In this document: piece after piece, positions 35,889 to 64,000 of the stretch
Position numbering within the stretch: the stretch's first letter is position 1
How the letters are laid out: each line of letters starts with the position of its first letter
DNA from: Patescibacteria group bacterium
Lineage (GTDB): Bacteria; Omnitrophota; Gorgyraeia; Gygaellales; Profunditerraquicolaceae
Assembly: GCA_035506195.1 (NCBI GenBank)
Contig: DATJPV010000023.1
Location: 1,050 to 65,049 of the forward strand
DNA length: 64,000 nucleotides
Direction: 5' to 3'
Position numbers and translations under genes: made by a program
The notes under the pieces: model-generated
What the model saw: the letters and a program-made list of their open reading frames with translations, nothing else
Told to the model about the DNA's origin: nothing
Databases searched by the model: none

Positions 35889-36936
35889 TATTCACCTCCA
35901 GCACAATATACCCCGAACGCCTGATCAAGACCTTGTTGCAGGCAGGACAATACGTCTGCTCCGCCGGATGAGGGGATATATTTCCTATATACACGTACTT
36001 GAGCCCGCAGTCAAGCGCAATATCCCTGGCCTTTTCCAGGGCGCTTACCGGCGTCGGGTTCAACGCAGCCAGTTTATACAAAGGGAAAAAGCGGGAAAAG
36101 TGCAACGGCGTATCCGCGCCCAGGTTATCCTTGATCCAGCGGCACATGGCGATGAGTGTCTGACTGTCATCGTTAAACCCCGGGACGATCAGGTTGGTAA
36201 CCTCCAGGTGCACCCCGGCTTTTTTTATGGCTTTTAACGTCTCCAGGACCGGCCCAAGCGTAGCGTCGGAAAACCGGGCGTAGTAATCATCGCTGAATCC
36301 CTTCAGGTCGATGTTCGCCGCATCCAGATACGGAAGGAGCTGCTCCAGCGGCTCTTTGTTGATATAACCGGCGGAGTGCATCATGTTGCGTATCCCCTGC
36401 TTCTTGGCCAGCTTCGCAGTCTCCAGCATATATTCATAAAATATGGTCGGCTCAGTGTAGGTATAGGCGATGGTCGGGCTGCCCGCCTCCTTGACCCTGC
36501 GCACCAGTTCTTCGGGCGATACGTCCAGAGAACTGACCTCCTCGGGCTTGCGCTGGGAGATCTCCCAGTTTTGGCAAAATTTACAGCGCAGGTTGCACCC
36601 CGCCGTGGCGATGGAATAGGCGGCGGTGCCGGGCAGAAAATGAAACAGGGGCTTTTTTTCGATCGGATCGATGTGCACGGCGACGGGCCGGGAGTATACA
36701 AGCGTATACAGCGTGCCGTTACGGTTCTCCCTTACACCGCAGAAACCGCGCCTGCCTTCGGTAATCAGGCAGTTGCGCGGACACAAATGGCACTGGACGG
36801 CCCTGTCTTTAAGTTTCTCATAAAAAAGGGCTTCTTTGAGGGTCGTTGCGGCGGTTAACCGAGGAAGCGCAATGCAGGCCCCCAAGAGGACCCAAAGGAA
36901 GGCAAAAAGGCAAGCCGCTCTTATGGCATGCTTCAT
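35833..36936 (-). CDS. AmmeMemoRadiSam system radical SAM enzyme
   Basis: 367 aa. Conserved EALFYEKL...VQCHLCPRNC and the radical SAM cluster motif CNLRCKFCQNW. N-terminal hydrophobic segment AACLFAFLWVLLGACIAL. The ATG lies 15 nt after the tRNA-Ala 3' end with no SD. Confidence 0.85.
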   Translation of the reverse strand: MKHAIRAACLFAFLWVLLGACIALPRLTAATTLKEALFYEKLKDRAVQCHLCPRNCLITEGRRGFCGVRENRNGTLYTLVYSRPVAVHIDPIEKKPLFHFLPGTAAYSIATAGCNLRCKFCQNWEISQRKPEEVSSLDVSPEELVRRVKEAGSPTIAYTYTEPTIFYEYMLETAKLAKKQGIRNMMHSAGYINKEPLEQLLPYLDAANIDLKGFSDDYYARFSDATLGPVLETLKAIKKAGVHLEVTNLIVPGFNDDSQTLIAMCRWIKDNLGADTPLHFSRFFPLYKLAALNPTPVSALEKARDIALDCGLKYVYIGNISPHPAEQTYCPACNKVLIRRSGYIVLEVNIVDGKCKFCGEKIAGVWN

Positions 36937-36951
36937 GGGCAGGGATAAAAG

Positions 36952-37024
36952 TGGAGCAGATGGGATTCGAACCCACGGCCTTCGCGATGCGAACGCGACG
37001 CTCTCCCAGCTGAGCTACTGCCCC
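36952..37024 (-). tRNA. trnA: tRNA-Ala (anticodon CGC)
   Basis: Reverse complement GGGGCAGTAGCTCAGCTGGGAGAGCGTCGCGTTCGCATCGCGAAGGCCGTGGGTTCGAATCCCATCTGCTCCA. G3:U70 Ala identity pair, anticodon loop TT-CGC-AT, no encoded CCA. Confidence 0.9.
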
Positions 37025-37133: not shown

Positions 37134-37760
37134 TTAGTTTGCCGACACCGATGGCATGCGAATGCGCGAAAAAAGCCTGATGCTCGGATTTTTGGGGCTA
37201 CCGCACGCATCAGGGTTACCGTCCGGATCCCAGCAGGCGGTTACCTGTATTTCCAGCGTATCCGCAGACGGATTCAAAACATATGTCGGCTGAGCCGGAT
37301 CGTTGCCAAAATCAGGGCTGATCTTTTTTTGAGTAATCACCTCATATACGCCCGGGGCGGTAGTAAGGTCCGGATAATACCAGACTTCGTAATTCGGCGC
37401 GGACCGGTAACGATAGGCGATCTGCCTGTCGGCAGGAGAGGCATCCCTGCGGCCATTACCGTTATAATCGATCCATACGGTCATCGTCGTGTCTCCGCCG
37501 ATGGTGGTCATTGCTATCGGAGGGTTGATCGTATCCCCTATCGCTCCGCCCCTGTCGCTTGAACCTACGATACTGCGGGTTATGTGCCCTACCAAAAATG
37601 AAGCCTCCTGCTGCACCTGGGCGCGCCGCATCGAAATGAGCAGATGACCGTAGCAAAAGCTATCGATCATCGCAAAAGCGCCGACAATGATCGACATCAG
37701 AACCAGACTTATGATAAGCTCGATAAGCGTAAGGGATTTAAGGTGTCGGAGGGGGCTCAT
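37134..37760 (-). CDS. minor pilin / pseudopilin with prepilin-type N-terminal helix
   Basis: 208 aa. N-terminus HLKS-LTLIELIISLVLMSIIVGAF (E at +5 of the putative mature end), followed by a variable domain. Confidence 0.65.
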   Translation of the reverse strand: MSPLRHLKSLTLIELIISLVLMSIIVGAFAMIDSFCYGHLLISMRRAQVQQEASFLVGHITRSIVGSSDRGGAIGDTINPPIAMTTIGGDTTMTVWIDYNGNGRRDASPADRQIAYRYRSAPNYEVWYYPDLTTAPGVYEVITQKKISPDFGNDPAQPTYVLNPSADTLEIQVTACWDPDGNPDACGSPKNPSIRLFSRIRMPSVSAN

Positions 37761-38103
37761 TCCACGTAATGGTAACTTTTACTTTTTTCAAGTGGGAATT
37801 CCCGACCCAGGCGCTCACATCAGCCGTACTGTATGCCGGGGTATAGGTAATGGGGGGCACCTGCAGGGCGCCCGGGCATCCGGTACCTGCGGTGAGGCAA
37901 TTACTGCCCCAGGTAGCCTGATTGACGTCTGCCTGCAAAGGGTCCAGAAAATACCTTCCCAGCTCTCCGCCGGCGCTACGGCTGCGGCTATGGAGCAGGC
38001 TGCGCCTGCCGGTTATGAAAACGCTGGACATCCCGGCGAGCACCAGCGCAAGCAATATTGCCGCTACCAATACCTCAATCAAGCTCACGGCCCTTTTACT
38101 CAT
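37738..38103 (-). CDS. minor pilin / pseudopilin
   Basis: 121 aa. N-terminus MSKRA-VSLIEVLVAAILLALVLAG (E+5). 23-nt overlap with the downstream pilin gene. Confidence 0.6.
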   Translation of the reverse strand: MSKRAVSLIEVLVAAILLALVLAGMSSVFITGRRSLLHSRSRSAGGELGRYFLDPLQADVNQATWGSNCLTAGTGCPGALQVPPITYTPAYSTADVSAWVGNSHLKKVKVTITWNEPPPTP

Positions 38104-38124
38104 ACAGAAACTTAAAAGAAGCCC

Positions 38125-38523
38125 TTACCATGACCCGTCGCAGGCATACGGCTCTTCCGTGGAAGCGCTTTGATTCGTGCACCAGACATGGTTGGTTTTC
38201 GTAACGCGCTGCGCCTTACCGATAAAGGCGTTAGGGGAAGTAGTAACGTTATCGACTTTATAATTCCATCGCGATCCCGCCTGCGGCAACATAAGGTTAA
38301 GCAGGGAGTTGACCGTAGTGTTGTCGGCGGCGGCGACATAAGCCCCGATTTCCATTTTGTAGATTCTTTCAGCCGACTGGATAAGCTTCAAATTGGCGAT
38401 GGCCTCTTTATCCAAGACAGCTTCTCGGTGCGCGGTATATTGGGCTACGCCGATAGTAGCCAAGACACCGATAATGACAAGCACTACCATTGTTTCCATT
38501 AAGGTGAAGCCCTTAATCTTCAT
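38125..38523 (-). CDS. GspG/PilA-like pseudopilin (type IVa prepilin leader MKIKG|FTLMET)
   Basis: 132 aa; G-1/F+1/E+5 signature, TLMETMVVLVIIGVLATIGV helix. The start codon directly abuts the T-tract of the upstream terminator, with no SD. Confidence 0.75.
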   Translation of the reverse strand: MKIKGFTLMETMVVLVIIGVLATIGVAQYTAHREAVLDKEAIANLKLIQSAERIYKMEIGAYVAAADNTTVNSLLNLMLPQAGSRWNYKVDNVTTSPNAFIGKAQRVTKTNHVWCTNQSASTEEPYACDGSW

Positions 38524-38524
38524 A

Positions 38525-38575
38525 TAAAAAAATGACAGTCCTTATTGCGTGCCTACGCACGCAATAAGGACTGTC
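38525..38575 (-). terminator. rho-independent terminator after the major pilin gene
   Basis: Perfect 19-bp stem GACAGTCCTTATTGCGTGC / GCACGCAATAAGGACTGTC with a 4-nt loop, followed on the minus strand by TTTTTTT. Confidence 0.8.
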
Positions 38576-38595
38576 TCCGAGCTTGCACAAAACAA

Positions 38596-39024
38596 TTAAT
38601 AACCGCCAGATCCTCCCCACGTATCAACACCCGTGCTCAGGACCGATGTCAACTGGACGTCTCCAGCAGTTGATGCCTGCGGGAGTTTTCCACCAGCTGT
38701 ACAACGTGTTGCTACGCCGGTAACGTTTGTTGCAGCCGAAGTTACCGAATAGCTGAACCAATGCGAGGCGCGGCAAGCGCTGGGAATCTGATCGGCATTG
38801 GTACCGATATGGGCAGTAGAAGCCCCGGTTCCAAAACTGGCGGTGCTACCGAATTCCAAATAATATCCCGCCGATAGCTTCCTGATGTCGCCCAAAATAG
38901 CCTTGGCTTCTGCACCACGAGATTTCTCGATCATTCTGGCATATTGCGTGAAACCGAGGATCGCCAACACGCCCAAAATGATAATAACTACGATCAACTC
39001 GAGCAACGTAAAACCTTTTTTCAT
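38596..39024 (-). CDS. pilA: major type IVa pilin (PilA-like)
   Basis: The track ORF is N-extended. ATG 39024 follows AAAAGGAGGAGACAAC. MKKG|FTLLELIVVIIILGVLAILGF prepilin signature. 142 aa. Flanked by its own consensus promoter and a strong terminator. Confidence 0.85.
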   Translation of the reverse strand: MKKGFTLLELIVVIIILGVLAILGFTQYARMIEKSRGAEAKAILGDIRKLSAGYYLEFGSTASFGTGASTAHIGTNADQIPSACRASHWFSYSVTSAATNVTGVATRCTAGGKLPQASTAGDVQLTSVLSTGVDTWGGSGGY

Positions 39025-39167
39025 GTTGTCTCCTCCTTTTTTATTATTAAACCTGTGATTCATTTGATTCATTTTTTGTTTCTCGGAAAATTTTGATTTC
39101 GGTTATAGATGTGCTGCCTGTATCTATAGAGCCTGCCTTTACCACCCCCTTTCATGCTTCTGTTCAA

Positions 39168-39196
39168 ACTATATCACAAAATACCAATGCTGTCAA
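39168..39196 (-). promoter_or_regulatory. consensus sigma70 promoter with extended -10 for the major pilin (TTGACA-17-TGATATAGT)
   Basis: Minus strand reads TTGACA-GCATTGGTATTTTGTGA-TATAGT. It begins about 20 nt after the pilC stop. The predicted leader is about 135 nt. Confidence 0.55.
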
Positions 39197-39214
39197 CAAG
39201 TTAGCAAAGAATTA

Positions 39215-40456
39215 CTATGACCCTCCGATCTTGGAAATCTGGAAGATAGGCAAGAACATCCCAACGACCATAACGCCGATAACCAGACCCATGAAAATAA
39301 GCATGAGCGGTTCGAACATCGCGGTAAACCTCGTCAAGAACGTCTCGACGTACTCTTGATAAAACGTATTTACTTTTTTGAACATCTGCGATAGCTCGCC
39401 GATCTCTTCTCCGATCGAAACCATCTGGACGAACATCGGCTCGAAAAAACCGCTTTTCTCCAGCGGCTGGCTCAGGGGTTTGCCTTCCCGCACGTCGTCT
39501 TTTATTTTGCGGATGATGTCTCCGACGATCAGATTACCGACGCTGCGTTCGGCGATCTCAAGAGAATAAAGGATAGGCACGCCGCTTTCAACCAGCGTAG
39601 ACATCTCTGATGAGAACCTTTCCAGTATGAGCGCATGAAAAAATTCACCCAACACCGGCATGTCGAACTTAAAACGCTCCCACTGACGCCGCCCGTCGCC
39701 GCTGCGCGTGTATCTCCGGAAAAGAAAGAACAGGACCACAGAGCCTCCTATGCCGACCAACAAATAGTGCCTGAGAAAACTACTCACCGAAAGAAGTATC
39801 TTGGTGAGCGCAGGCAGCTCGACGTTGAACCCTTTGAATAATTCGGCAAACGTAGGAATAATTTTGACCGATAAAAACAAAAGCGCCCCTAAACCGGCAA
39901 CGGTAAGTATGACAGGATAGACTAACGCGGAAACCACCTTCCGCCTAAAGGCTTCCATCCTCTCCAGGTAATTTGCGAGGCGGCTCAATATGATTGCCAA
40001 GTTTCCGGAAGCCTCACCGCTCTCTACGAGGTTAACCCATAATTCGTTAAACACCTTAGGGTGTTTTGCCATCGTTTCATGAAGGCTGATACCGGCCTCC
40101 ATGTTGCGCTGTAGGTCTCTCATTACCACCTGGAGCTTGCGGCTGGAAACCTGCTGCGAAATAATATCGAGGCTCTTTAAGATCGTCACGCCCGCGCCGA
40201 GCAATGTCGCCAATTGGCGGCAAAAAAGCGTCAGGTCCTCATCCTTGATCCCTGAATGCTGCGGCCTGAATTTCTCCTTCTGCTGCCCGGGCTCTTTAAA
40301 GGCCGGCGCGCCTTCTTTGGGCTCCGAAAGAATGCTGACGACTATCAGATCCTTTGCCTGAAGCCTGCCGACGACCTCTTCCTGCGATGAGGCTTCTTCT
40401 ACGCCGGTTATTTTCTTACCGGTGACATCCCTGGCGGTATAAAAGAATCTTGGCAT
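39215..40456 (-). CDS. pilC: type IV pilus inner-membrane platform protein PilC/GspF family
   Basis: 413 aa. Two T2SSF repeats, each with 3 TM. N-terminus MPRFFYTARDVTGKKITG. Confidence 0.9.
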   Translation of the reverse strand: MPRFFYTARDVTGKKITGVEEASSQEEVVGRLQAKDLIVVSILSEPKEGAPAFKEPGQQKEKFRPQHSGIKDEDLTLFCRQLATLLGAGVTILKSLDIISQQVSSRKLQVVMRDLQRNMEAGISLHETMAKHPKVFNELWVNLVESGEASGNLAIILSRLANYLERMEAFRRKVVSALVYPVILTVAGLGALLFLSVKIIPTFAELFKGFNVELPALTKILLSVSSFLRHYLLVGIGGSVVLFFLFRRYTRSGDGRRQWERFKFDMPVLGEFFHALILERFSSEMSTLVESGVPILYSLEIAERSVGNLIVGDIIRKIKDDVREGKPLSQPLEKSGFFEPMFVQMVSIGEEIGELSQMFKKVNTFYQEYVETFLTRFTAMFEPLMLIFMGLVIGVMVVGMFLPIFQISKIGGS

Positions 40457-42183
40457 TAATCGGACCCCAACGTAACCGAGAGGGCCTCTTCCAATGAGGT
40501 GAGGCCGTCTTCGACCTTTTTAATTGCCGATTCATACAGTGTTTGCATCCCGTTGTCCCGGGCAACATCCCTGACCCGCTGGAAAGAAGCCCTTTGGTTG
40601 ATCAGGTCCCGTATGGTGTCATTGACTATCATGACCTCGGAGATACAGGCCCTGCCTTTATACCCGAGTTGATTGCACTTGGCGCACCCTTTCGAGCGGT
40701 ATATTAATTCGGTCTTGAGTTTTATGCTCTTGAGCTGTTCGGTAGTAGGCTCATAGGCTTCTTTGCAGTCCGGGCAAAGTTTGCGCAGTAATCTCTGGGC
40801 CACGACCAACAGCAGCGAAGGGGCAATCAGATACGACTCGATACCGATGTCCATAAGGCGCGTTACCGCAGAAGCGGCGTCATTGGTATGCAGAGTGCTT
40901 AATACCAAATGCCCGGTTAACGCCGAACGGATACAGATCTGTGCGGTCTCTAAGTCCCTGACCTCCCCCACCAGCATGATATCCGGGTCCTGGCGTAAAA
41001 AACTTCGCAGGGCGCTGGCAAAAGTCAGGCCTATCTCCGGCTTGACTTGAACCTGGTTGATGCCATCCAGCTTATATTCAACGGGGTCTTCGATGGTGAT
41101 GATGTTTTTCGTGGGGCTCTTTATTTCATTAAGGATCGCATAAAGGGTAGTGGTCTTGCCGCTTCCCGTAGGGCCGGTCAGAAAGATCAGCCCGTAGGGC
41201 ATATTTATCTCCCGGCGTATCTTATCGAGCTGCTTGGAATCAAAACCCATCTGCCCTAGATCCAGGACCACGGAACTGCGGTCCAGTATTCTTAAGACCG
41301 CCTTTTCTCCGTAGATCGTCGGGACGGTAGAAACTCTCAAGTCAATCGGCCGGTCCTCCACCTTGACGAGGAACGCCCCGTCCTGCGGCAGGCGTTTTTC
41401 GGCGATATCCAGCTTACTGAGGATCTTGATACGGGAAACGATCGGTAAATGCAGGTGCCGGGCAGGAGGAGGTATTTCGTACAGCTTGCCATCGATGCGG
41501 TAACGCAGGGATATCTTGTCTTTGAAGGGTTCGATATGTATGTCGGACGCCCTTTCATCGATCGCCTGCCTGATGATCAGATCCACCAATTTTACGACCG
41601 GCGCCTCTTCGGCGCGCGCGATGAGCTTGTCCAGGCTCAGCTCTTGGTCCGGCGGCTCGCCGCTATCCTCTATTTCCTGCGCCGAAGGCAGATCATAGGA
41701 GGCCTCGACCGCCTGTTCCAGCATCTTTGACTTACCGTAAAATTCTTCAATTGCCCGGGTCAGGTCGGATTTAGTAGCGATTACCGGGTTGATCTCGCAG
41801 CCGGTAAGTTTTTTCAAGTTGTCGATAAGGATGAGGTCGAGCGGATCGGCCATGGCCACCGTCAGCGACCGGAGCGTGCGCGATAGGGGAAGCACCAGGT
41901 TCTTGAGGGCAAAATCCTGCGGGATAAAATGCTCCAGGTCCTGATCCGTTGCCGGGCGCAGCATACCGGTGCCCAGAGAAAAATAAGGTATGCCCAGCTG
42001 CTTTCCGAGCACCGCCACGAGCTTGTCTTCCTTGACGATGCCCAGTTTTATGAGAAGCTCTCCCAGGCGGCCGCCCTCCTGCCTCTGGACGCTGATCGCC
42101 TTCTCAAGCTGCGCCTCGGAGACGATGCCTTCCTTTACTAAAAGCTCGCCTAGTTTTAAATATTTCTCTTTGTTATGCGGCAT
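40456..42183 (-). CDS. pilB: type IV pilus assembly ATPase PilB/GspE family
   Basis: 575 aa. N-terminal GSPII_E_N-like domain, Walker A LTGPTGSGKTTTLYA, tetracysteine CPDC...CAKC motif. Confidence 0.9.
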   Translation of the reverse strand: MPHNKEKYLKLGELLVKEGIVSEAQLEKAISVQRQEGGRLGELLIKLGIVKEDKLVAVLGKQLGIPYFSLGTGMLRPATDQDLEHFIPQDFALKNLVLPLSRTLRSLTVAMADPLDLILIDNLKKLTGCEINPVIATKSDLTRAIEEFYGKSKMLEQAVEASYDLPSAQEIEDSGEPPDQELSLDKLIARAEEAPVVKLVDLIIRQAIDERASDIHIEPFKDKISLRYRIDGKLYEIPPPARHLHLPIVSRIKILSKLDIAEKRLPQDGAFLVKVEDRPIDLRVSTVPTIYGEKAVLRILDRSSVVLDLGQMGFDSKQLDKIRREINMPYGLIFLTGPTGSGKTTTLYAILNEIKSPTKNIITIEDPVEYKLDGINQVQVKPEIGLTFASALRSFLRQDPDIMLVGEVRDLETAQICIRSALTGHLVLSTLHTNDAASAVTRLMDIGIESYLIAPSLLLVVAQRLLRKLCPDCKEAYEPTTEQLKSIKLKTELIYRSKGCAKCNQLGYKGRACISEVMIVNDTIRDLINQRASFQRVRDVARDNGMQTLYESAIKKVEDGLTSLEEALSVTLGSD

Positions 42184-42196
42184 GTGTCCTTAGGGA

Positions 42197-43744
42197 TTAC
42201 TGCCACTTTTCGATATTATCCAGGCTCGAATTTATAAGCGACCGGCGGTCGCCCCGTGCCCCCGTGCCCTGCTCTCTTTCGGGAAGCGCAATCTCCCCTG
42301 CCTTGACAAGCTCCATGTTGGAATCCTTGATGATGTGGGGCGTGATAAACACCAGAAGTTCCCTATCCAAATCGATAGACTGATTCTTGTGCCGGAATAA
42401 TGCGCCCATGATGGGGATATCCCCCAGGAAAGGCACTTTTTTACTGACTATCTCCTTATCCGTATGGATCAAGCCTCCGACCACCACCGTGTCTCCGTCC
42501 TTGACCTTAACGATGGATTTGCTGGCCCTGACCTCGGCATCTGCCTGCGTGGCGGCCAAGGGGCTGACGGAAGTAACGCTCGACTTGGGGTTGATCACCA
42601 TGGTGATCTCGCCGGTTTCCGGGTTGACCTGGGGAGTGACTCTTAAATAAATACCCACCCCTTCGGGGGTAAGCTTAAGGTCTGTCGACCGTATATATTC
42701 GGTAGCGGTCGATTGGCCGGCGCTCGTAGAGTTGGTAGTCTCCTTCTTGCCCACCACCTCGTCTCGGGTGATGGAGATCTCCGCGGTTTCGTTGTTCAAA
42801 GTCAACAGCTTCGGCCGGGCCAAATATTTCACGTCGTTCTGCGTATGCAGAAGGTCCATGACTATCTGGTATGATGCGCTCGTGCCGTCTAGCTTAGATG
42901 TGTTAAGGCTTATGGATCCGGCCCCGCTTGTCGTGCTGCCGCCGGTGCCGGTTCCGGTTGAGCTGTCGAAATTACTCCATTTTCCGAAAGGAAACGGGAA
43001 CCGCGTAGGGGCGGTGGCACCGGTCAATACCATCGTAAACGGCGACTGGCTGTATTCAAACCCCATCTTATCAACCACGTTCTTGGAGACATCCAGGATC
43101 TCGACTTCAATGAGTACCTGAGAAACGGGGACATCCAATAAAGCAATGGTCTTCTCGATCAAAGGCATGCGGCTGGGTACCTCGGTAACTACCAGGCTGT
43201 TCGTGCGGTAATCCTCGATCACCGAGCCCTGAGCAGAAAGAAGTTTCTGGATGGTATTGGTAAGGCAGGCGGTATCTTTTTCTTTGTTGGCGGCGCCGGC
43301 ATTCATGCCCGTCACGCTGACCTGCGACATTTCCTGCCTGACTGCGGATGTCACCACCGAAGCATGCTTCAGAGGGAACACCTTGGTGACCGTGTCTGCC
43401 TGAGGCTTACCCCAGTCCTTGACTACGATGATATTTGATTCCTCATACAAGTCATAGGAAAGGTTATTGGCTTTAAAGAGCTTATCTACCACCTCCTTGA
43501 GCGGCACATTATCCAGGAAAAGGGTGATCTTGCGGTCCTGGACCGCTTCGGAAGCGATGAAATTAAAGCCCGACTGAACGGAAAGTATCTTAAGCACATC
43601 CTTCAGGCTGGCGTTCTGAAAATCCATGGACACGTTTATCGCGGACACGTCGGAGAACGCGTCTACCGCCGCCTCCAGCCGCGGAAACGCTATCATCGTA
43701 AAAAGAGCCGCTGCTATTGCCACGCTCCTAATGTTCTTTCTCAT
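42197..43744 (-). CDS. pilQ: secretin (PilQ/GspD family)
   Basis: 515 aa. Signal peptide, N-domains, and a C-terminal secretin domain (VVVGGLIHTDKEIVSKKVPFLGDIPIMGALFRHKN...LLVFITPHII). Confidence 0.88.
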   Translation of the reverse strand: MRKNIRSVAIAAALFTMIAFPRLEAAVDAFSDVSAINVSMDFQNASLKDVLKILSVQSGFNFIASEAVQDRKITLFLDNVPLKEVVDKLFKANNLSYDLYEESNIIVVKDWGKPQADTVTKVFPLKHASVVTSAVRQEMSQVSVTGMNAGAANKEKDTACLTNTIQKLLSAQGSVIEDYRTNSLVVTEVPSRMPLIEKTIALLDVPVSQVLIEVEILDVSKNVVDKMGFEYSQSPFTMVLTGATAPTRFPFPFGKWSNFDSSTGTGTGGSTTSGAGSISLNTSKLDGTSASYQIVMDLLHTQNDVKYLARPKLLTLNNETAEISITRDEVVGKKETTNSTSAGQSTATEYIRSTDLKLTPEGVGIYLRVTPQVNPETGEITMVINPKSSVTSVSPLAATQADAEVRASKSIVKVKDGDTVVVGGLIHTDKEIVSKKVPFLGDIPIMGALFRHKNQSIDLDRELLVFITPHIIKDSNMELVKAGEIALPEREQGTGARGDRRSLINSSLDNIEKWQ

Positions 43745-54594: not shown

Positions 54595-56418
54595 TTATGG
54601 TACGGCGTTCAATGCCTGCCAGGCCTTATCGGCGTTATCGTATTGTTTGAGCTTTTCATAGATCACCGCCAGGTTGTAGAGCGCCCGTCGGTCAGACGGG
54701 TCCAGCGCACGCGCAGCCTTCAACGCCCGCACTGCCTGAGGATAGACCTGTAATTTTCCGAAGGAGATGCCCGCAAGTATGTACATCTGGGGCGTAGGGC
54801 CGGCGGCGAGTTCCTTACCGATTATTCCCAGCGCCTGGCTGAATTCGCCTAAGCGCATGAGCGCAATGATCTCTTTCTCCTTCGGAGAGAATGCGGGGTC
54901 AAGCTCATCCTTGAAGACCTGCCCCTGTTCCTGCGCCAGAAGTTTCAGGCGGCGGTTGGCCTGCCAGTAAAAATAATCCCGCTCCAGCGCTGCCGCATAA
55001 GCCCGACGGGCCCGATCATACTGTTTCATCGCCCGATAAATATCCCCAAGCTGTATATAGGTGACCAGGTTTTCCGGTTCGCGCCGCGCCGACTGCCTGG
55101 CTTCGGCCAAGGCTTGCGCATAGAAGCCCCGCTGGGCCAAGGCAGATATTAAGAACGACCGGGTAATAAAGCTTACGGAGGGCTCCATCAGGGCCAGATT
55201 ACGGCGATAGAACGGAAGCTCCTGCCTCCAGCCACCGGCGTTGGCGAAGGTAGAAAACCCATACCCGCATACAAGGGCAGCCGACAGTATGAGCAGGACG
55301 GTCATGCTGCGTATCCGCAGGAGCAGGTATGCGGCTACCAGGAAAACCCCCCATGATGCCAGGTACACCCAATGCTCTTCGGCCGCCAGTGACCCCGGGA
55401 ATTTATACATAAATCTTATTAGATACGACAGCATCAGGATGAACCAGGTGATCCCGGTAAAGACCGCATACTTTCTTTTTTTAAAAGCGAAAATGGTTAT
55501 CGCCGTCAGCGCTACCGCTAGGACTACTGCCGCAAAGGCCCCAGCTGACCAGTATCCCGATACCGGCTTGATCATGCGCAATACATGCAGCCCCTGCGGA
55601 GCGATCAGGAGGCTGAGGTATTCGCGGATAACGCTCCAAAAATTAAGTACGTCTCGCCCGATCCCGTAGCCGCCCTGCGGGGCTATCCAGACGGGGACAA
55701 GCACGGTAAGCCGCAAGGTAATATAGAGGGCGAAAAGGCTGGCAAAGGATATGCAATGAGACACTAGCGACCCCCTCGGGACTTTCGCTTTCATCCCGAT
55801 ACAGGCGATATACAAAGGAATAAGCGCAAGGAAGCCCGCCTCCCGGGATAATAGCGCACAGGCAAAACTGGCCAGAGAAAGCAAGTAATATGTTTTCTTC
55901 GAAGAAGCCGCATATGCGCTATAGGATAGCAGGCTCAGCAAGACCCATACCGCCAACAGCAGTTCGCCGCGGTCGGCGATATAACAGACTGTCTCGGTAT
56001 GCAGGGGGTGTACGCAGAACAAAAGCGCGCTCAATAATGCCAGCGAAAAACTTGAAAACACGCGATACACAAGGGCAAACCCCAGGAACGTGACCAAGGC
56101 ATGAATAAGGACGTTCGTCAGATGGTAGCCTGCCGGATTCAGCTTCCAGATGTGGTATTCCAAGGCGTACGACAGGCTCATCAGGGGCCGGTAATATTTG
56201 TACCCTTCGTCGAATACGGAAAATTTGAACAGGTCGGTGGAAAAAAGCAGCGGCGCCTTATGCCAGTCTTTGATGAGCTCGTTCTGGACTATCAGGAATT
56301 TATCGTCGGCGACAAAGTCTCCGCGCAACACCTGGCAATACAGGACGACGGCGAGGAACAAAAAAAACAAAAAAATATAAATACCGGGTATGTTCTTTTT
56401 CATCTGTGTTAAAAACAC
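54595..56418 (-). CDS. TMTC-like polytopic membrane protein with C-terminal TPR repeats (GT39/PMT-related putative glycosyltransferase)
   Basis: 607 aa. About 11 TM in the N-terminal 400 aa ([17 protein letters not shown]...). The C-terminal ~180 aa hold 4-5 TPRs. The track start is GTG 56418, with an alternative ATG at 56403. Confidence 0.6.
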
Positions 56419-56478: not shown

Positions 56479-56730
56479 TTATCTCTTTTTCTTTTTGCCG
56501 CCTCTTTTCATCTTGGCGCAGGACACGTCGCCTTTTTTGTCGATGAAATAGAGATAGCCCTCTTTCCTCTTGATGCCTAACTTCACGAGTTTTTTAGGGC
56601 TGCCGCCTTTTTTGCCGGCTCTGGCCATCTTGGCGCAGGACACGTCGCCCTGCTTATCAAGATAGTAAAGATACCCCTTTTCTCTCTTGACACCTGCCTT
56701 CGCTACTTTCTCTGCCATGTTATTCTTCAC
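56479..56730 (-). CDS. small basic protein built from two tandem ~35-aa repeats (hypothetical)
   Basis: 83 aa. Repeats AGVKREKGYLYYLDKQGDVSCAKMARAGKKGG / LGIKRKEGYLYFIDKKGDVSCAKMKRGGKKKK. The DNA repeat CATCTTGGCGCAGGACACGTCGCC occurs twice, about 107 nt apart. Strong SD GGAGGTGAAGAATAAC-ATG. Confidence 0.6.
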   Translation of the reverse strand: MKNNMAEKVAKAGVKREKGYLYYLDKQGDVSCAKMARAGKKGGSPKKLVKLGIKRKEGYLYFIDKKGDVSCAKMKRGGKKKKR

Positions 56731-58437: not shown

Positions 58438-58838
58438 ATGACCTCTAGAAGCGGCTTAAGCACAAACGGCCGCTCAAACATCCTCGGGTGAGGGATGGTC
58501 AGCTGCGCGGCAGTAATGACCCTGGCGTCATAGAGCAAAATATCCAGATCAATGACCCGGGGCCCCCAACGGACGGTCTTGACCCTGCCTATTTTTTTCT
58601 CGATCGCCTTCAACTTCTTAAGCAGCGCAAAAGGAGAAAAACAAGTCTGAATCTTCAGCGCGGCATTCAAAAAATCCCCCTGAAGCAAGGGCCCGCCCAC
58701 GGCTTTGGTCCTGATGGGGCGCGACATCTTTATAATACGGGTGCCTGCCAAAGCGTTTATTTTTTGCACTGCCGCTACGATATGCCGGCGCCGATCCCCC
58801 AGGTTAGAACCGATGCTCAAATAACAAATAGCCATCAA
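58434..58838 (-). CDS. folK: 2-amino-4-hydroxy-6-hydroxymethyldihydropteridine diphosphokinase
   Basis: 134 aa; YLSIGSNLGDR...GPRVIDLDILLY, HPPK motifs. Confidence 0.88.
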   Translation of the reverse strand: MMAICYLSIGSNLGDRRRHIVAAVQKINALAGTRIIKMSRPIRTKAVGGPLLQGDFLNAALKIQTCFSPFALLKKLKAIEKKIGRVKTVRWGPRVIDLDILLYDARVITAAQLTIPHPRMFERPFVLKPLLEVI

Positions 58839-59995
58839 AGAATTTTCCGTAAACGCTCAGTCGCTTCTTTGATCCTTTCCTTAGATACGGTCAGCGCCAT
58901 GCGTATGTAGTTTTTGCCGTATGCTCCGAAACCCACGCCGGGAGTAACCACGATATTCGCCCTTTCAAGCAATAGCGAAGCGAATGTGAGGGAATTCGTC
59001 TTTTTGGGGGTCTTGAGCCAGAGATAAAAGGTGGCTTTGGGCGTATTGACGCAGAAACCCAACGAGTGCAGCCCCGTCACCAGCACATCCCGGCGCTCCT
59101 GATACAGCGCGCACATGTTCCGGATGTGCTCCTGAGGCCCCTGGAGGGCGGCAAGGCCGGCAATCTGCACCGCGGAAAATATCCCCGAATCGATATTGGA
59201 CTTTACCTTGGCGAGTGCTGCGACCAATTGTCCGTTACCGCAGGCCCAGCCGACGCGCCAACCGGTCATATTATATGTTTTGGACAGCGAATGGAATTCG
59301 ATCACGGTATCCCTGGCGCCCTCCAGCTCCAGGAGGCTGGATGGACGGTATCCGTCATATGCTATTTCGGAATATGCCAGATCCGAAATAATAATGAGCT
59401 TGTGCTTTTTCGCAAACGCGATAAGCTGGCAGTAAAAATCATTTTCCGCGACCGCGGAGGTAGGATTATTGGGGTAATTGACGTAGATAAGCCTGGCCTT
59501 CCTGCAGACAGCCGTAGGTATTTTTTTCAGGTCAGGCAAAAAACCGTTTTCTTCCCGCAGGCCCATTAGATACGGTTTCCCCCCGGCAAAAATGGTCCCG
59601 CCTTTATAGGGCGGATAGCACGGATCAGGCACGAGAGCATAATCGCCTGCGTTGAGCAACGCCAGCGGCAGGTGGGCAATGCCTTCTTTGGAGCCGATAA
59701 GCGGAATGATTTCGGTGTCCGGATTCAACGTCACCCCGAAACGGTTTTTATACCAGGCGGCCATCGCCTGGCGCAATGCGGGCATGCCTTGATCCAGGGC
59801 ATAGCGATGGTGCGCGGGGTCGCGGGCCGCCCCACAGAGGCTTTCGACAATATGGGCGGGCGTAGGCTGATCAGGATCCCCGATACCCAGGTCAATAATA
59901 TCCCTGCCTTCCTGCCTGGCTTTTCTTTTGGCCTTATCGATCTCGACGAATAAATACGGCGGTAAGCTCTGTAATCTTCCAGAAACCTTAAACAT
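58835..59995 (-). CDS. dapL: LL-diaminopimelate aminotransferase-like class I aminotransferase
   Basis: 386 aa; LPPYLFVEID, IGDPD, SLSKTYNMTGWRVG (PLP-lysine context). Adjacent to dapB and dapA. Confidence 0.7.
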   Translation of the reverse strand: MFKVSGRLQSLPPYLFVEIDKAKRKARQEGRDIIDLGIGDPDQPTPAHIVESLCGAARDPAHHRYALDQGMPALRQAMAAWYKNRFGVTLNPDTEIIPLIGSKEGIAHLPLALLNAGDYALVPDPCYPPYKGGTIFAGGKPYLMGLREENGFLPDLKKIPTAVCRKARLIYVNYPNNPTSAVAENDFYCQLIAFAKKHKLIIISDLAYSEIAYDGYRPSSLLELEGARDTVIEFHSLSKTYNMTGWRVGWACGNGQLVAALAKVKSNIDSGIFSAVQIAGLAALQGPQEHIRNMCALYQERRDVLVTGLHSLGFCVNTPKATFYLWLKTPKKTNSLTFASLLLERANIVVTPGVGFGAYGKNYIRMALTVSKERIKEATERLRKIL

Positions 59996-60007: not shown

Positions 60008-60724
60008 CTATGGTTTTGTGAGCACGTCCTGCATGGAATACAACCCCGCAGGTTTTCCAAAAAGCCATTTTGCCGCCCTCAGGGCGCCTAGGGCGAACAA
60101 GTCGCGCGAATGCGCCTGATGCTTGATCTCGATGCGCTCGGAGTTCCCGCAAAAAATAATCGTGTGATCCCCGACGATATCGCCCAGGCGTATGGCATGT
60201 ACCGGGATCTGCCTTTTTGTGGCTTCGGTCAAGACCTCGCCGAACTTCCTGGCCGTGCCCGAGGGAGAATCCTTCTTGGCCTGGTGATGCGCCTCTACGA
60301 TCTCGATGCGATAGTCGGGACCGAGCCTTTTCGCCAGCTCCGGCAGCATTGAGAATAAAACATTGACGCCGACCGACATATTGGGAGAGAATACAACCGG
60401 AACCGCATGCGAGGCCTCTTCTACTTTTTTGAGTTGCTGATCGTTAAGGCTGGTGGTCCCCAGCACAAGAGCCTTCTTGTACCTGGCCACATAGTCAAGG
60501 TTGGCTTCCGTTGCTTCAGGGACGGTGAAATCCACAAAGACATCCACCAGAAACAGCCCGTCCGAATTAGAGGATATCTTGATCTTGCCCAAGTCCTTGC
60601 CGATCGCCGGGGTCCCTTTCTTCTCCAATGCCAAGGCAATTTCGAAGTCCTTATCCTGAGAAGCCAGTTCAAAAATACGCCTGCCCATTCGACCGCATAC
60701 GCCGCTGATCCCTAGCTTGATCAT
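60008..60724 (-). CDS. dapB: 4-hydroxy-tetrahydrodipicolinate reductase
   Basis: 238 aa; KLGISGVCGRMG Rossmann, EAHHQAKKDSPSGTA motif. Confidence 0.92.
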   Translation of the reverse strand: MIKLGISGVCGRMGRRIFELASQDKDFEIALALEKKGTPAIGKDLGKIKISSNSDGLFLVDVFVDFTVPEATEANLDYVARYKKALVLGTTSLNDQQLKKVEEASHAVPVVFSPNMSVGVNVLFSMLPELAKRLGPDYRIEIVEAHHQAKKDSPSGTARKFGEVLTEATKRQIPVHAIRLGDIVGDHTIIFCGNSERIEIKHQAHSRDLFALGALRAAKWLFGKPAGLYSMQDVLTKP

Positions 60725-63291
60725 TTCCGCTGCTCCTGTGTTGAGTTACCCCAGTTAATTTTATATAAGTAAATCGTGGTATGCCCCGGCTCCTGCTGAC
60801 GCGCGTCTAATTGGAAATACTTCAGGCCCCTGCCCTGTAAAAAATACAACTTGAAAAAGAGAGTTTCCGTCAGAGGGGCGGTGCAGAGCGTCGCCTTATA
60901 GTTATCCGCCTCCTGGAAGAACAAAACCGCATAGTCCGCATTGCCCTGGCTATTGATCGTTTCCTTGAGGGTTTTTTCCGTTGCCCAGATGACTTTTCCC
61001 GCGGTTATCCAGCTGCCCGTTGTTTCGTCTCGGAAATAGGCGGCTGTTTTTTCCCGGTCTACAACTATGCCGTTATCGAACAGGATGATCTTACGGTTAT
61101 CCTGAGGGACGGGCTGCTGCGCGTAGTTTGTATAGAAGCGGTACACCGAGGTAGTCAGGAGCCCGGCGGCTTCGCTGGTATCGGTAAAAAGGAACCGGCG
61201 GTACAGCGTTTCGGCATCCTTGACGGAATAACCGAAATTCTGTTGCGCGTATTGCAGGAACGGGGCTTTCTGCCGACGCAGGCGAGAGAACTCCTGCCAC
61301 AATGCACCCAGGGAAAAATCGCGGTTGGCCATCCAGCTCAAAGCCCAAAGGTAGCCGATCATGTCGTTGTTAAGCATCAGGTATGCGTTCCGGGGAGACG
61401 CATAGAGAAAACCTGCGATCTGATCGCGCCTGTCTTTATCCTGGACATAACGGGCCAGAAGGCCCATGCCCTCTTCTTTTTTGCAGGCCACCAGACGGTT
61501 AAGCAGCTCCAGGGTCTTCAGCTTGTCGTTACCCATGGCGCGGCACAGTTCTTCGAATGCCTTATTGCCGGCCAGGTCTATCATGCGCAGTATGCCTTGA
61601 GCCTCTTCTTCGCTGCGCGCAAACAGCGCCCGAGAGAACCAGTAGGGAACGGCGTGGCTCTGCCAATGCGGGTCCTCGATGGTGGCGCGCCTGCCAAGGG
61701 TCATGATCCAATCGCCCTCCCACCAGTATGCGTTGATAATGGAATCAGCGGGGGTTTCCTGGCGCATATGAAGGAACATCTTCTCCCAGGTATCGTTTAT
61801 CGACGCATGGTAATGCATGGTATATGCCCGGGACACCGGTATCGCCGTCAATGCCAGAAAGGCCAAGCCCAGCGCCATCCGGTATGCTCGCCTGCCCTGG
61901 CACAGGCGCGCATATACTATATCCAGGCAGGCGCATAACGACAACACCAGAGGTGCGGCCAAAAACAAAAGGAACCTGTGCCCGAAATGGGACAACGCCA
62001 GCGACGCCAATAGCCAAACGAACACCACGGAGAATATACACTGCCTCTGCCTAAAATCGTGGAATATCCGCTGGTAATGCGTCAGAAAGAGGATACCGAC
62101 TATCCCTCCATACAGCACAACCGACCCTCCTGAAGTAGCCAGCATATCTATGACGCTGGCGCGCTTTAATTCCGCAACGGTAAACAAAGGATAAGGCCAA
62201 AAATTATCCAGCGATAAGCCTTGGCGCAGGGCCAAATATACGAAAGGCTCTTGTACCGCCCGATGCAGCACTGCGCGCCCGGAAATGGCCCATACGGAAA
62301 CCAGGGATACAGCCAAAAACAGGCCAACCTCCCAGAGTGCATGGGTAATCCGCGCAACAAGCGGCTCCTTTTTGTCGTAGCTGACGACACCGAGCTTATA
62401 GAACAGAAAACCCGCGCACAGGATATAAAACCAAAGCCACCAGCTCGACCACAGGGAGGAATATATCCCGATCAGGATGCCCGCCAGGGCCAAAAGGAGA
62501 AACCGGGGCCGGCCCTTTTCTTTAAAGGCGTGCGCCAGGACCGCGGTAGTAAGCAGCGGCATACATAGATTATAGATATCGGTATCAAACCAGCCGTAAC
62601 CGGACCTGGCCATGACAATGGGGGCAAGGCCGAAAAAGATACTGGCGATGAAACTTCCCATGCAGGAAAGCCCGAACAGGCCGCACAGATAAAAGAAAGA
62701 GACGATCAATACGGGAGAAAGCACCACTGGCGCAAGCCCCAGGGCGCCTATAAGCGACAATTTATCGTTCAAAAAATGCATCGCCTTGTAAAGATAGACG
62801 CTGATATAGAAATGCAGCCTTATGGATTCGACGGCATCCCCCCGCGGGGCAAACTCCAAGTCATCATACTCCCGGTTCTGTCTGATCGAGGTACCGAATC
62901 TGCCCGTGTCCAGATACGTCTGCGCACGGCGCGCCCAGCGGTACGCATCGGTTTCCAGGAGATAGGGCCAGCCGTCCTTATCCCGCAGGTAGTCCTTCAT
63001 TTCCTGGCTCTTATTGCGGATGGCCTGTTCTATTTTCGCGGAGTTGCTCTGGGCATACGCATCGAATGCGCTCTTCTTGATTCTTTGCACGGCAGGCTCG
63101 GTAGGGCGTTGCGGGTAGTCGGCGGATATCTGTTGGTCCAAGGCAGACTGGAGATCGGCATATACCCATTGCCGCGCGGCCCTGTCGATATCCCGCAGAA
63201 AAAAATTATTCAGACGGAAATAGGCATTGACGGCTATGGACGCTGCCAGCAAAACCACGCATATCGGGATCGCGTATTTCTGATTAGTCAT
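60721..63291 (-). CDS. STT3/AglB/PglB-family oligosaccharyltransferase homologue (tentative), polytopic membrane protein with large C-terminal domain
   Basis: 856 aa. TM1 then ETDAYRWARRAQTYLDTG (resembles the STT3 DxYxxxRxxE...G loop-1 motif), about 12 further TM, then YWWEGDW (WWDYG-like) at the start of a ~330-aa soluble C-terminal domain. Confidence 0.45.
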   Translation of the reverse strand: MTNQKYAIPICVVLLAASIAVNAYFRLNNFFLRDIDRAARQWVYADLQSALDQQISADYPQRPTEPAVQRIKKSAFDAYAQSNSAKIEQAIRNKSQEMKDYLRDKDGWPYLLETDAYRWARRAQTYLDTGRFGTSIRQNREYDDLEFAPRGDAVESIRLHFYISVYLYKAMHFLNDKLSLIGALGLAPVVLSPVLIVSFFYLCGLFGLSCMGSFIASIFFGLAPIVMARSGYGWFDTDIYNLCMPLLTTAVLAHAFKEKGRPRFLLLALAGILIGIYSSLWSSWWLWFYILCAGFLFYKLGVVSYDKKEPLVARITHALWEVGLFLAVSLVSVWAISGRAVLHRAVQEPFVYLALRQGLSLDNFWPYPLFTVAELKRASVIDMLATSGGSVVLYGGIVGILFLTHYQRIFHDFRQRQCIFSVVFVWLLASLALSHFGHRFLLFLAAPLVLSLCACLDIVYARLCQGRRAYRMALGLAFLALTAIPVSRAYTMHYHASINDTWEKMFLHMRQETPADSIINAYWWEGDWIMTLGRRATIEDPHWQSHAVPYWFSRALFARSEEEAQGILRMIDLAGNKAFEELCRAMGNDKLKTLELLNRLVACKKEEGMGLLARYVQDKDRRDQIAGFLYASPRNAYLMLNNDMIGYLWALSWMANRDFSLGALWQEFSRLRRQKAPFLQYAQQNFGYSVKDAETLYRRFLFTDTSEAAGLLTTSVYRFYTNYAQQPVPQDNRKIILFDNGIVVDREKTAAYFRDETTGSWITAGKVIWATEKTLKETINSQGNADYAVLFFQEADNYKATLCTAPLTETLFFKLYFLQGRGLKYFQLDARQQEPGHTTIYLYKINWGNSTQEQRK

Positions 63292-63301
63292 CCGGAACGC
63301 C

Positions 63302-64000
63302 TTATAATAAGCCGTAATCTTTCAAGGATTTCTTCAGCTTCTCCGTATTTTCTTCTGACATCGCGGACATCGGCAGCCTTAATTCGGGCGCGCACAAACC
63401 CAGTATCCCCATTGCGGTCTTAACGGGTATGGGGTTTGTCTCGATAAACATGGCCCTTATCAAAGGCAGGAGCCGGTAATGTATCTGCTGGGCCTTGGCG
63501 ATATTGCCTCTCTCAAACTCTGCCACCAGCTCTGCAGTGTCTTTGGGCACGATATTCGCTACGACCGAAATCACGCCGGTGCCTCCGATAGCAAGCACGG
63601 GCAGGGTCAGGCCGTCATCCCCCGACAAAAGATCAAACCCCGGCACAGACAAGGCTTTAACCCGGGACATCTGCTCAAGGTTCCCGGATGCCTCTTTGAT
63701 GCCCACGATATTCTTACACTCCCTGGCCAGGCGGGCTACGGTTTCCGGCTCGATGTTGACGCCGGTACGCGAAGCAATGTTATAGAGTACCAACGGTATA
63801 TCTGCGGCTTCGGCAATGGCCTTAAAATGTTCATAGAGGCCTTTCTGGGTGGGCCGGTTATAATACGGGGCCACCTGCAAAGAGGCATCGGCTCCGGATG
63901 CGGCCGCATGCTTCGTAAGCATGACTGCCTCTGCGGTAGAATTTGAGCCGGTCCCGGCGATAACCGGCACTCTTTTACGGGTCTGCTCGATAGTAATCTC
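63302..64000 (-). CDS. dapA: 4-hydroxy-tetrahydrodipicolinate synthase, C-terminal part (gene continues past window end)
   Basis: The frame is open from 64000 to the stop at 63302. IPVIAGTGSNSTAEA...YYNRPTQKGLYEHF...LYNIASRTG match the DapA TIM-barrel. The N-terminal ~60 aa lie outside the window. Confidence 0.9.
   Translation of the reverse strand, partial: EITIEQTRKRVPVIAGTGSNSTAEAVMLTKHAAASGADASLQVAPYYNRPTQKGLYEHFKAIAEAADIPLVLYNIASRTGVNIEPETVARLARECKNIVGIKEASGNLEQMSRVKALSVPGFDLLSGDDGLTLPVLAIGGTGVISVVANIVPKDTAELVAEFERGNIAKAQQIHYRLLPLIRAMFIETNPIPVKTAMGILGLCAPELRLPMSAMSEENTEKLKKSLKDYGLL

Follow-up and report, generated by a model that had tools for sequence, protein, structure and literature searches.

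An STT3/AglB-like gene inserted between dapA and dapB keeps its catalytic residues and has lost its Ser/Thr-pocket signatures

The inserted gene and its family

The stretch of DNA considered here (the window; 64,000 nucleotides (nt), positions 1,050 to 65,049 of contig DATJPV010000023.1 in assembly GCA_035506195.1) carries a gene for a homologue of the oligosaccharyltransferases (OSTs) STT3, AglB and PglB inside a dap operon. The open reading frame (ORF) starts with ATG, occupies 60721..63291 on the minus strand, where almost all real genes of the window lie, and encodes 856 amino acids (aa). It is flanked upstream by dapA, cut by the window edge (4-hydroxy-tetrahydrodipicolinate synthase; 63302..64000, minus; TIGR00674, 292.8 bits), and downstream by dapB (4-hydroxy-tetrahydrodipicolinate reductase; 60008..60724, minus; TIGR00036, 222.9 bits) and dapL (LL-diaminopimelate aminotransferase; 58835..59995, minus; NF006756, 592.6 bits), whose identities are borne out by both Pfam and NCBIfam. 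The full backbone order is dapA-[STT3]-dapB-dapL-folK-panC-AspDH, the last being a gene for aspartate dehydrogenase (AspDH). The TAA stop of dapA is followed after 10 nt by the ATG of the STT3-like gene, the TGA stop of which shares the tetranucleotide ATGA with the start of dapB, and a GGAG lies 9 nt upstream of the dapB ATG, inside the STT3-like coding sequence. No promoter- or terminator-like sites beyond chance were found at the junctions of the STT3-like gene. The gene is thus arranged as an earlier note on the window, made from its sequence alone, had described it, with the same coordinates, 10-nt gap and 4-nt overlap. It is predicted to be co-transcribed with dapA and dapB and translationally coupled to dapB. 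The protein already carries the NCBI label “STT3 domain-containing protein”; the homology has been annotated in outline, and the gene is a real feature.

What kind of protein does the gene encode? The earlier note had proposed an STT3/AglB/PglB homologue, and the hidden Markov model search bears this out: Pfam STT3 (PF02516) matches residues 94-458 at 85.4 bits (E=7.7e-24), above the gathering cut-off of 24.5, and also matches all 17 of the related dap-linked proteins described below. Searching PDB sequences with the single protein (phmmer) gave nothing useful. A family profile was needed, and one of 54 sequences matched AglB (3waj, E=5.5e-30), STT3A (4.9e-25) and PglB (5.8e-21). A second homologue search, made with the alignment, brought in nothing further, and an AlphaFold2 model was therefore built on 10 aligned sequences (pLDDT 80, pTM 0.75). 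It has a first transmembrane (TM) helix, a helical periplasmic insert, ~12 more TM helices, a disordered external loop 5 (EL5) and a C-terminal domain of ~360 aa with an α/β-plus-β fold, and so contains every part of the layout first read from the sequence. Model confidence is low over EL5, which is not surprising in a flexible loop. In a Foldseek comparison of the model with the PDB, the best match is PglB (5ogl, E=1e-18, target TM-score 0.69), followed by AglB and by yeast and human STT3; the top 19 matches are all PglB, AglB or STT3, and the isolated C-terminal domain of PglB (3aag) also matches (E=4e-7). DPY19, AftA, ArnT and the PMTs rank far lower (ArnT 1e-3, PMT >0.01). The identities named at the outset as possible alternatives, YfhO, ArnT and DUF2723, are rejected on the Pfam STT3 match and on the preference of Foldseek for PglB, AglB and STT3.

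The window protein is a homologue in the STT3/AglB/PglB superfamily (glycosyltransferase fold class C (GT-C), CAZy GT66), and it would span the membrane with 13 helices and expose its C-terminal domain to the periplasm. No NCBIfam model matches it. The curated model of the C-terminal core, PF21436 (STT3-PglB_core), has no match in the window protein at E≤1; this model matches 3/17 members of the dap-linked clade versus 28/32 other family members.

Catalytic centre and acceptor pocket

The residues on which catalysis and donor binding depend in known OSTs were counted in 24 non-redundant sequences of the dap-linked clade and in 153 sequences from the rest of the family. Four sites are kept. First, the loop-1 motif noticed earlier, TDAYRWARR (T114-D115-A-Y-R118-W-A-R121-R122, residues 114-122; 62926..62952, minus), is present as the catalytic segment of external loop 1 (EL1), and its D115 is aligned by the profile-to-PDB comparison to the first catalytic Asp of AglB (D47) and STT3A (D49), the counterparts in PglB and Stt3 being D56 and D47. 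Second, D236-T-D238 in EL2 (62578..62586, minus) is the second acidic, metal-binding DxD motif; it is aligned to GFNDHH of AglB and SYDNE of STT3A, and its PglB counterpart is D154/D156. Third, T371-V-A-E374 in EL5 (62170..62181, minus) is what we take to be the motif of TIxE type, E374 being its catalytic Glu; judged by where it lies in EL5, E374 is probably the equivalent of PglB E319. Fourth, R439 (61975..61977, minus) is aligned to the NRF segment of AglB and the VRL segment of STT3A, and its counterparts, PglB R375 and Stt3 R404, bind the donor pyrophosphate (PMC7226087). D115, D236, D238 and E374 are each present in 24/24 clade members and are near-invariant in the rest of the family (the E374 position in 151/153), and R439 is present in 23/24 clade members and 153/153 other sequences.

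The signatures of the pocket that reads the acceptor are not kept. In characterized enzymes, the Trp-Trp-Asp of WWDYG (or WWDXG) hydrogen-bonds the +2 Ser/Thr (PMC7226087, PMC2952790, PMC11407970). WWDYG is said to occur in all OSTs, and its mutation abolishes N-glycosylation (PMC2952790). A second site carries either a DK motif, DXXKXXX[MI], or an MI motif, MXXIXXX[IVW] (PMC3703281), and substitution of its Lys or Ile is lethal in yeast or lowers activity elsewhere (PMC3703281, PMC7226087). In the window protein, YWWEGDW (residues 522-528) lies at the junction of the TM part with the C-terminal domain, where the earlier note had placed it, but that note took the motif as WWDYG-like through W-W-E. 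The register is instead Y-W-W-E-G, because G526-D527 is invariant, and it is the same in MAFFT alignments of 38 and 158 sequences, in the profile-to-PDB alignment and in hhalign (probability 100%, 843 columns). The degenerate counterpart of WWDYG is therefore Y522-W523-W524-E525-G526 (61714..61728, minus), in which the first Trp has become Tyr and the Asp has become Trp. The DK/MI site, placed by sequence alignment only, is M644-I-G-Y647-L-W-A-L651 (61339..61362, minus), where the family consensus is M-x-x-K-x-x-x-W. Among the motifs that the earlier note had singled out for structural comparison, then, the acidic ones are present (catalytic D115, D236/D238) and the WWDYG and DK/MI signatures have been replaced (by Y-W-W-E-G and Y647).

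These replacements belong to a wider pattern. The first Trp of WWD is found in 3/24 clade members versus 153/153 elsewhere, the Asp in 12/24 versus 153/153, and the DK-type Lys in 0/24 (Ile in 6/24) versus 143/153 (with Ile in 7 more). The three pocket positions take 8, 8 and 8 or more different residues within the clade, position 525 is Glu in 8/24, and the losses are concentrated in residues 521-549 and at position 647. Fisher p values for the losses range from 2e-12 to 2e-24, which overstates the evidence by counting related sequences as independent. A few members are close to canonical: P0015 has WWDYG, and the protein of locus L004 has YWDYG with M-x-x-I. Constraint on the pocket residues is released only in this monophyletic clade. 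The clade has also gained residues that are fixed in it and rare elsewhere, namely R118 and R122, which flank D115 (100% and 96% in the clade versus 3% and 6% elsewhere), E155, R356, F364, M530 and T537. Because of these clade-specific gains, the changes look like remodelling rather than decay; losses and gains together are the pattern of a putatively remodelled acceptor site.

WWDYG, the DK/MI signature, a PF21436 match and linkage to assembly genes for lipid-linked oligosaccharides, by which a canonical N-X-S/T OST would be recognized, were all looked for in the protein and in the 64-kb window, and none was found. Since Tyr, Trp and Tyr replace the pocket residues and PF21436 does not match, the window protein cannot, on its sequence, be filed as a canonical N-X-S/T OST. 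A sister clade (loci L029, L031 and L034; proteins P0122, P0143 and P0151) shows a different change: WWPPG, WWCPG or WWTPG stands in place of the motif, so that the Asp of WWD is absent, both Trp and usually the Lys are kept, and EL5 has VGET in place of TVAE. This is a second, independent-looking pocket variant.

An accessory insertion away from the pilin islands

A HMMER search of the whole library returned 2464 representatives at E≤0.001, with a sharp drop in score after ~14. Together with the dap-linked loci, those ~14 form one monophyletic Omnitrophota clade of 27 tips in a neighbour-joining tree, and the closest relatives outside Omnitrophota are Woesearchaeota proteins. The organism-named close relatives of the window's DapB, UvrA, PilB and STT3 are metagenome-assembled genomes (MAGs) of Candidatus Omnitrophota, the sole exception being L006 (uncultured Planctomycetia), and the NCBI label of the source contig, “Patescibacteria group bacterium”, is therefore probably wrong.

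ORFs of 845-903 aa are intact throughout the clade. Between the window and its 81%-identical relative L001, the ratio of nonsynonymous to synonymous substitution rates (dN/dS, ω) is 0.142 for the whole STT3-like gene and 0.12 for its C-terminal domain. Values for the operon neighbours are 0.036 for DapB, 0.108 for DapL, 0.166 for FolK, 0.192 for PanC and 0.159 for AspDH, the last three being similar to that of the STT3-like gene. With a dN/dS of 0.14, the gene is under purifying selection and is not decaying. In L032 (8001-10455), on a contig of ~1.2x coverage, the dapA-dapB interval contains an STT3 gene broken over three frames, which may be a pseudogene or an assembly error. In a distant family member, P0010 (961 aa, from a JGI metagenome), a PPIC-type peptidyl-prolyl isomerase domain is fused to the STT3 C-terminus, which hints at a coupling of glycosylation with periplasmic folding.

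How often is dapA separated from dapB? The order dapA-STT3-dapB-dapL-folK-panC-AspDH is found in the window, in L001, L002, L004, L007-L012 and L032, and in four metagenome loci. A scan for DapB returned 80 loci with DapB 77-86% identical to that of the window, of which 77 were informative; in 73 of these, dapA and dapB are directly adjacent, with gaps of 11-225 nt. The STT3-like gene is therefore a true accessory insertion in a housekeeping operon, as the earlier note had supposed for the dapA-dapB-dapL cluster, and is dispensable. Clade members also occur elsewhere (L005 and L006), and other STT3 relatives lie between queA and tgt. In a tree of DapB and DapL, the loci with STT3 are spread over the tree, whose backbone is short, and the three deepest branches are among them. 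The STT3 proteins of inserted loci are ~38% identical to one another irrespective of the divergence of their flanks (flank median 73%; Spearman 0.005), with no co-divergence beyond recent pairs. One old insertion followed by many losses is a tentative explanation; neither the comparison of STT3 with its flanks nor the short-backbone tree could separate it from lateral exchange.

Canonical Omnitrophota relatives occupy a quite different setting. A gene for a family 2 glycosyltransferase (GT2) directly follows STT3 in 17 loci, and further downstream are a PMT_2-type GT-C gene (9 loci), a B12-dependent radical S-adenosylmethionine (SAM) gene (8) and a second GT2 gene (6). In three of these islands, L016 (5885-10496), L025 (1-8721 and downstream) and L030 (2-6954 and downstream), PilB, PilC and three or four type IV pilins with GFTL[IVM]E N-termini directly precede STT3, and GT2, GT2, PMT_2, B12-radical-SAM and GT2 genes follow it. 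The sister clade of WWPPG type has the order PilB-PilC-pilins-TM+TPR-GT2-STT3, where TM+TPR denotes a membrane protein with tetratricopeptide repeats (TPRs).

The window has its own type IV pilus operon (secretin, PilB, PilC and four pilins, identified by Pfam and by the pilin N-termini; 37134..43744, minus), which is orthologous to that of L025 and L030 (PilB 76-78%, PilC 65% and pilins 30-48% identical). Where STT3 comes after the fourth pilin in those two loci, the window has only a tRNA-Ala(cgc) gene (36951..37024, minus; ARAGORN), at the site of the relatives' STT3/GT2/PMT_2 island. This site may be a hotspot of insertion or deletion. Beyond it, at 34371-36936 (minus), the window encodes a full AmmeMemoRadiSam trio, as a radical SAM enzyme (TIGR04337) and a fusion of protein B (Memo-like) with protein A (AMMECR1). 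No glycan-assembly genes were found in the 64-kb window, nor any homologues of the island genes by tblastn, and the placement of the STT3-like gene outside a glycan-biosynthesis island, as first described, holds. Genomes whose PilB is ~77% identical to the window's have STT3 proteins that are only ~25% identical to the window protein, with other pocket motifs and at other sites. Loss of the GT2/PMT_2/pilin context thus coincides with the change of motif. No GTDB isolate carrying both STT3 types was found, a weak negative given that MAGs are incomplete and that the patterns scanned for were derived from the dap-linked clade.

Archaeal AglB N-glycosylates pilins (PMC11407970). The presence of archaeal-type AglB beside type IV pilin genes in many Omnitrophota predicts N-glycosylated pilins in a bacterial phylum. 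Literature searches returned nothing relevant on an Omnitrophota OST or N-glycosylation, and no paper describing an archaeal-type pilin N-glycosylation island in this phylum. The pilins of the window contain N-X-S/T sites, and sequon counts rest on too few proteins to inform.

A second GT-C protein is encoded nearby. The TM+TPR protein at 54595..56418 (minus), between AspDH and uvrA, has C-terminal TPRs and a DD motif at 56302..56307. It has only TPR matches in Pfam, and no PMT-family match at E≤1. Homologues that are 40-47% identical to it score above the PMT_2 cut-off, more distant ones above those of PMT and TMTC_DUF1736, and the DD pair in loop 1 is invariant among them, so the label “TMTC-like” seems reasonable. 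With its loop-1 acidic motif, the PMT-family models reached through its homologues and its C-terminal TPRs, the protein falls among PMT/TMTC-like GT-C proteins; it differs from the TMTC and PMT protein O-mannosyltransferases in having neither a MIR domain nor its own PMT-family Pfam match. The idea that the window encodes two candidate glycosylation transferases holds for the nature of this protein, but the two genes do not co-vary: the TM+TPR gene is independent of the STT3 insertion (2x2 counts 1, 4, 5 and 16; Fisher p=1), and a fixed pair is rejected. In L006 and in the sister clade the two genes lie side by side. The backbone varies at a second place, between AspDH and uvrA (L040-L119, L001-L012); this interval is 353 to 2423 nt long and is either empty or occupied by a TM+TPR GT-C gene, with 27-32% or 100% identity to that of the window, or by an unrelated ORF of ~400 aa. 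Beside the AspDH gene, at 56479-56730 (minus), lies a gene for a very basic 83-aa protein with two repeats of G[VI]KR[EK][KE]GYLY[YF][LI]DK[QK]GDVSCAKM. It is conserved at 62-95% (mostly ≥77%) across loci, above FolK, PanC and AspDH, and has no match in Pfam, NCBIfam or the PDB.

Possible functions and known relatives

What might the inserted protein do? We infer its activity, donor type and acceptor class from sequence, and give an even chance to the following reading: a functional, single-subunit glycosyltransferase of the STT3/AglB/PglB family with intact donor and catalytic machinery, a remodelled Ser/Thr pocket and relaxed or altered site specificity. Because the EL1 Asp, the DxD motif, the EL5 Glu and the pyrophosphate-binding Arg are intact, the enzyme most likely still works with a divalent metal and with a glycan donor on a polyprenyl-diphosphate carrier. 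The pocket that reads the +2 Ser/Thr would have been remodelled by the change of WWD to Y-W-W, of the DK/MI residue to Tyr, and by the new Arg beside the catalytic Asp. The glycan would then most likely be passed to periplasmic or surface proteins with relaxed or altered site specificity. Several points weigh against this. The clade may be functionally mixed, given that half of its members keep the Asp and a few are nearly canonical. The 64-kb window shows no genes for donor assembly. The role is dispensable, the gene being absent from 73/77 close relatives, and L032 may carry a frameshifted copy. Finally, the pocket may have been rebuilt from W523, W524 and E525. A more far-reaching version is less probable than not: a maintained clade of STT3/AglB fold may have dropped the Ser/Thr pocket and kept its catalytic centre, acquiring a new acceptor rule (sequon-independent Asn, or another acceptor class) when the gene moved from a pilin-glycosylation island into a housekeeping operon.

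It is possible, if on balance unlikely, that the protein is an ordinary N-X-S/T OST whose pocket is built from other residues, such as W523-W524-E525 displaced by one position and a Tyr or Ile where Lys is usual. The fold and the catalytic residues are intact, W523 and G526-D527 are essentially invariant, and the Glu at position 525 in a third of the clade would suit such a shift. Some members have Ile at the DK/MI site, as in the MI motif of PglB, the WWDYG loop has been described as plastic (PMC3703281), and sequons are present in the window pilins. Free variation at three pocket positions that are near-invariant in 153 relatives is nonetheless unexpected under selection for the same pocket. 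PF21436 fails to match 14/17 clade members, and in published work, changing WWD or the Lys/Ile lowers activity or does away with it (PMC3703281, PMC2952790).

It is improbable that the protein glycosylates no protein at all, with the lipid-linked glycan either hydrolysed to free oligosaccharide or passed to a lipid or cell-wall acceptor. In favour of such a role, donor-side residues are conserved and peptide-reading residues are not, the new Arg beside D115 could bind an anionic acceptor, and the linkage to pilin genes has been lost. PglB itself releases free oligosaccharides, which speaks for hydrolysis; this release also needs WWDYG, which speaks against it. D115 and the whole C-terminal domain are under purifying selection (ω 0.12), and the canonical counterpart of D115 also contacts the acceptor carboxamide (PMC7226087). 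No candidate pathway for a non-protein acceptor is linked to the gene.

It is very improbable that the gene is a decaying or non-catalytic remnant, a pseudoenzyme or scaffold that outlived an ancestral glycosylation island. Dispensability in most relatives, fast divergence (~38% identity versus ~73% for the flanks), the vanished GT2 neighbours and the possibly frameshifted L032 copy would suit a remnant. Against it, the ORFs are intact across the clade, with the dN/dS given above. A scaffold would have no need of the catalytic and donor-binding residues, yet all five are essentially invariant, and at 1.2x coverage the frameshifts of L032 may have arisen in assembly. Least credible is a functional tie to the synthesis of meso-diaminopimelate (meso-DAP) and peptidoglycan, for example by action on lipid II, which is also undecaprenyl-diphosphate-linked: tight predicted co-transcription, translational coupling with dapB and a gene order kept in ~15 loci would favour it, but coupling to the DAP pathway is rejected because 73/77 close relatives have dapA and dapB adjacent with no insert, the operon also holds the unrelated folK, panC and AspDH genes, and relatives lie between queA and tgt, in pilin/glycosyltransferase islands or, for L005 and L006, elsewhere.

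What would a remodelled acceptor pocket mean? In published work, WWDYG and the DK/MI residue count as universal and essential features of OSTs (PMC2952790, PMC3703281). A clade in which purifying selection maintains the catalytic residues and the pocket residues drift is a natural experiment on how acceptor specificity is encoded, and the corrected reading of the motif makes the gene more unusual than the earlier note had supposed. For glycoengineering, the clade might supply OSTs whose site preferences are relaxed or new. The finding is purely computational and comes from uncultured organisms, and its importance depends on experimental follow-up.

Three known systems offer the closest comparisons. 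First, archaeal AglB of the Lys (DK) type (Archaeoglobus fulgidus AglB-L, 3waj/7e9s), with the AglB-like proteins of Woesearchaeota, is the best match by sequence profile. It shares with the window protein the 13 TM helices and C-terminal domain, the EL1 Asp, the second acidic motif and the Arg. The window protein differs in having Trp for the Asp of WWD, Tyr for the Lys and no PF21436 match, and in being bacterial and encoded inside a dap operon. Second, Campylobacter lari PglB (3rce/5ogl/6gxc) is the best structural match (target TM-score 0.69-0.70). It is likewise bacterial and single-subunit, and its DxD motif is spelled DTD in both proteins. Identity is only 12-13%, however, and PglB, unlike the window protein, has WWDYG and an MI motif and lies in the pgl glycan-assembly cluster, whereas in the window protein a helical insert adds ~70 aa to EL1 and the C-terminal domain is larger. 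Third, the canonical Omnitrophota STT3 proteins (L025, L030, P0008 and P0009) are of similar length (~830-870 aa), can be aligned end to end with the window protein by hhalign, and come from the same host phylum and closely related genomes. They are ~25% identical to it, retain WWD[YF]G and the Lys of M-x-x-K-x-x-x-W, belong to the group matched by PF21436, and are encoded after pilins and before GT2, PMT_2, radical-SAM and second GT2 genes.

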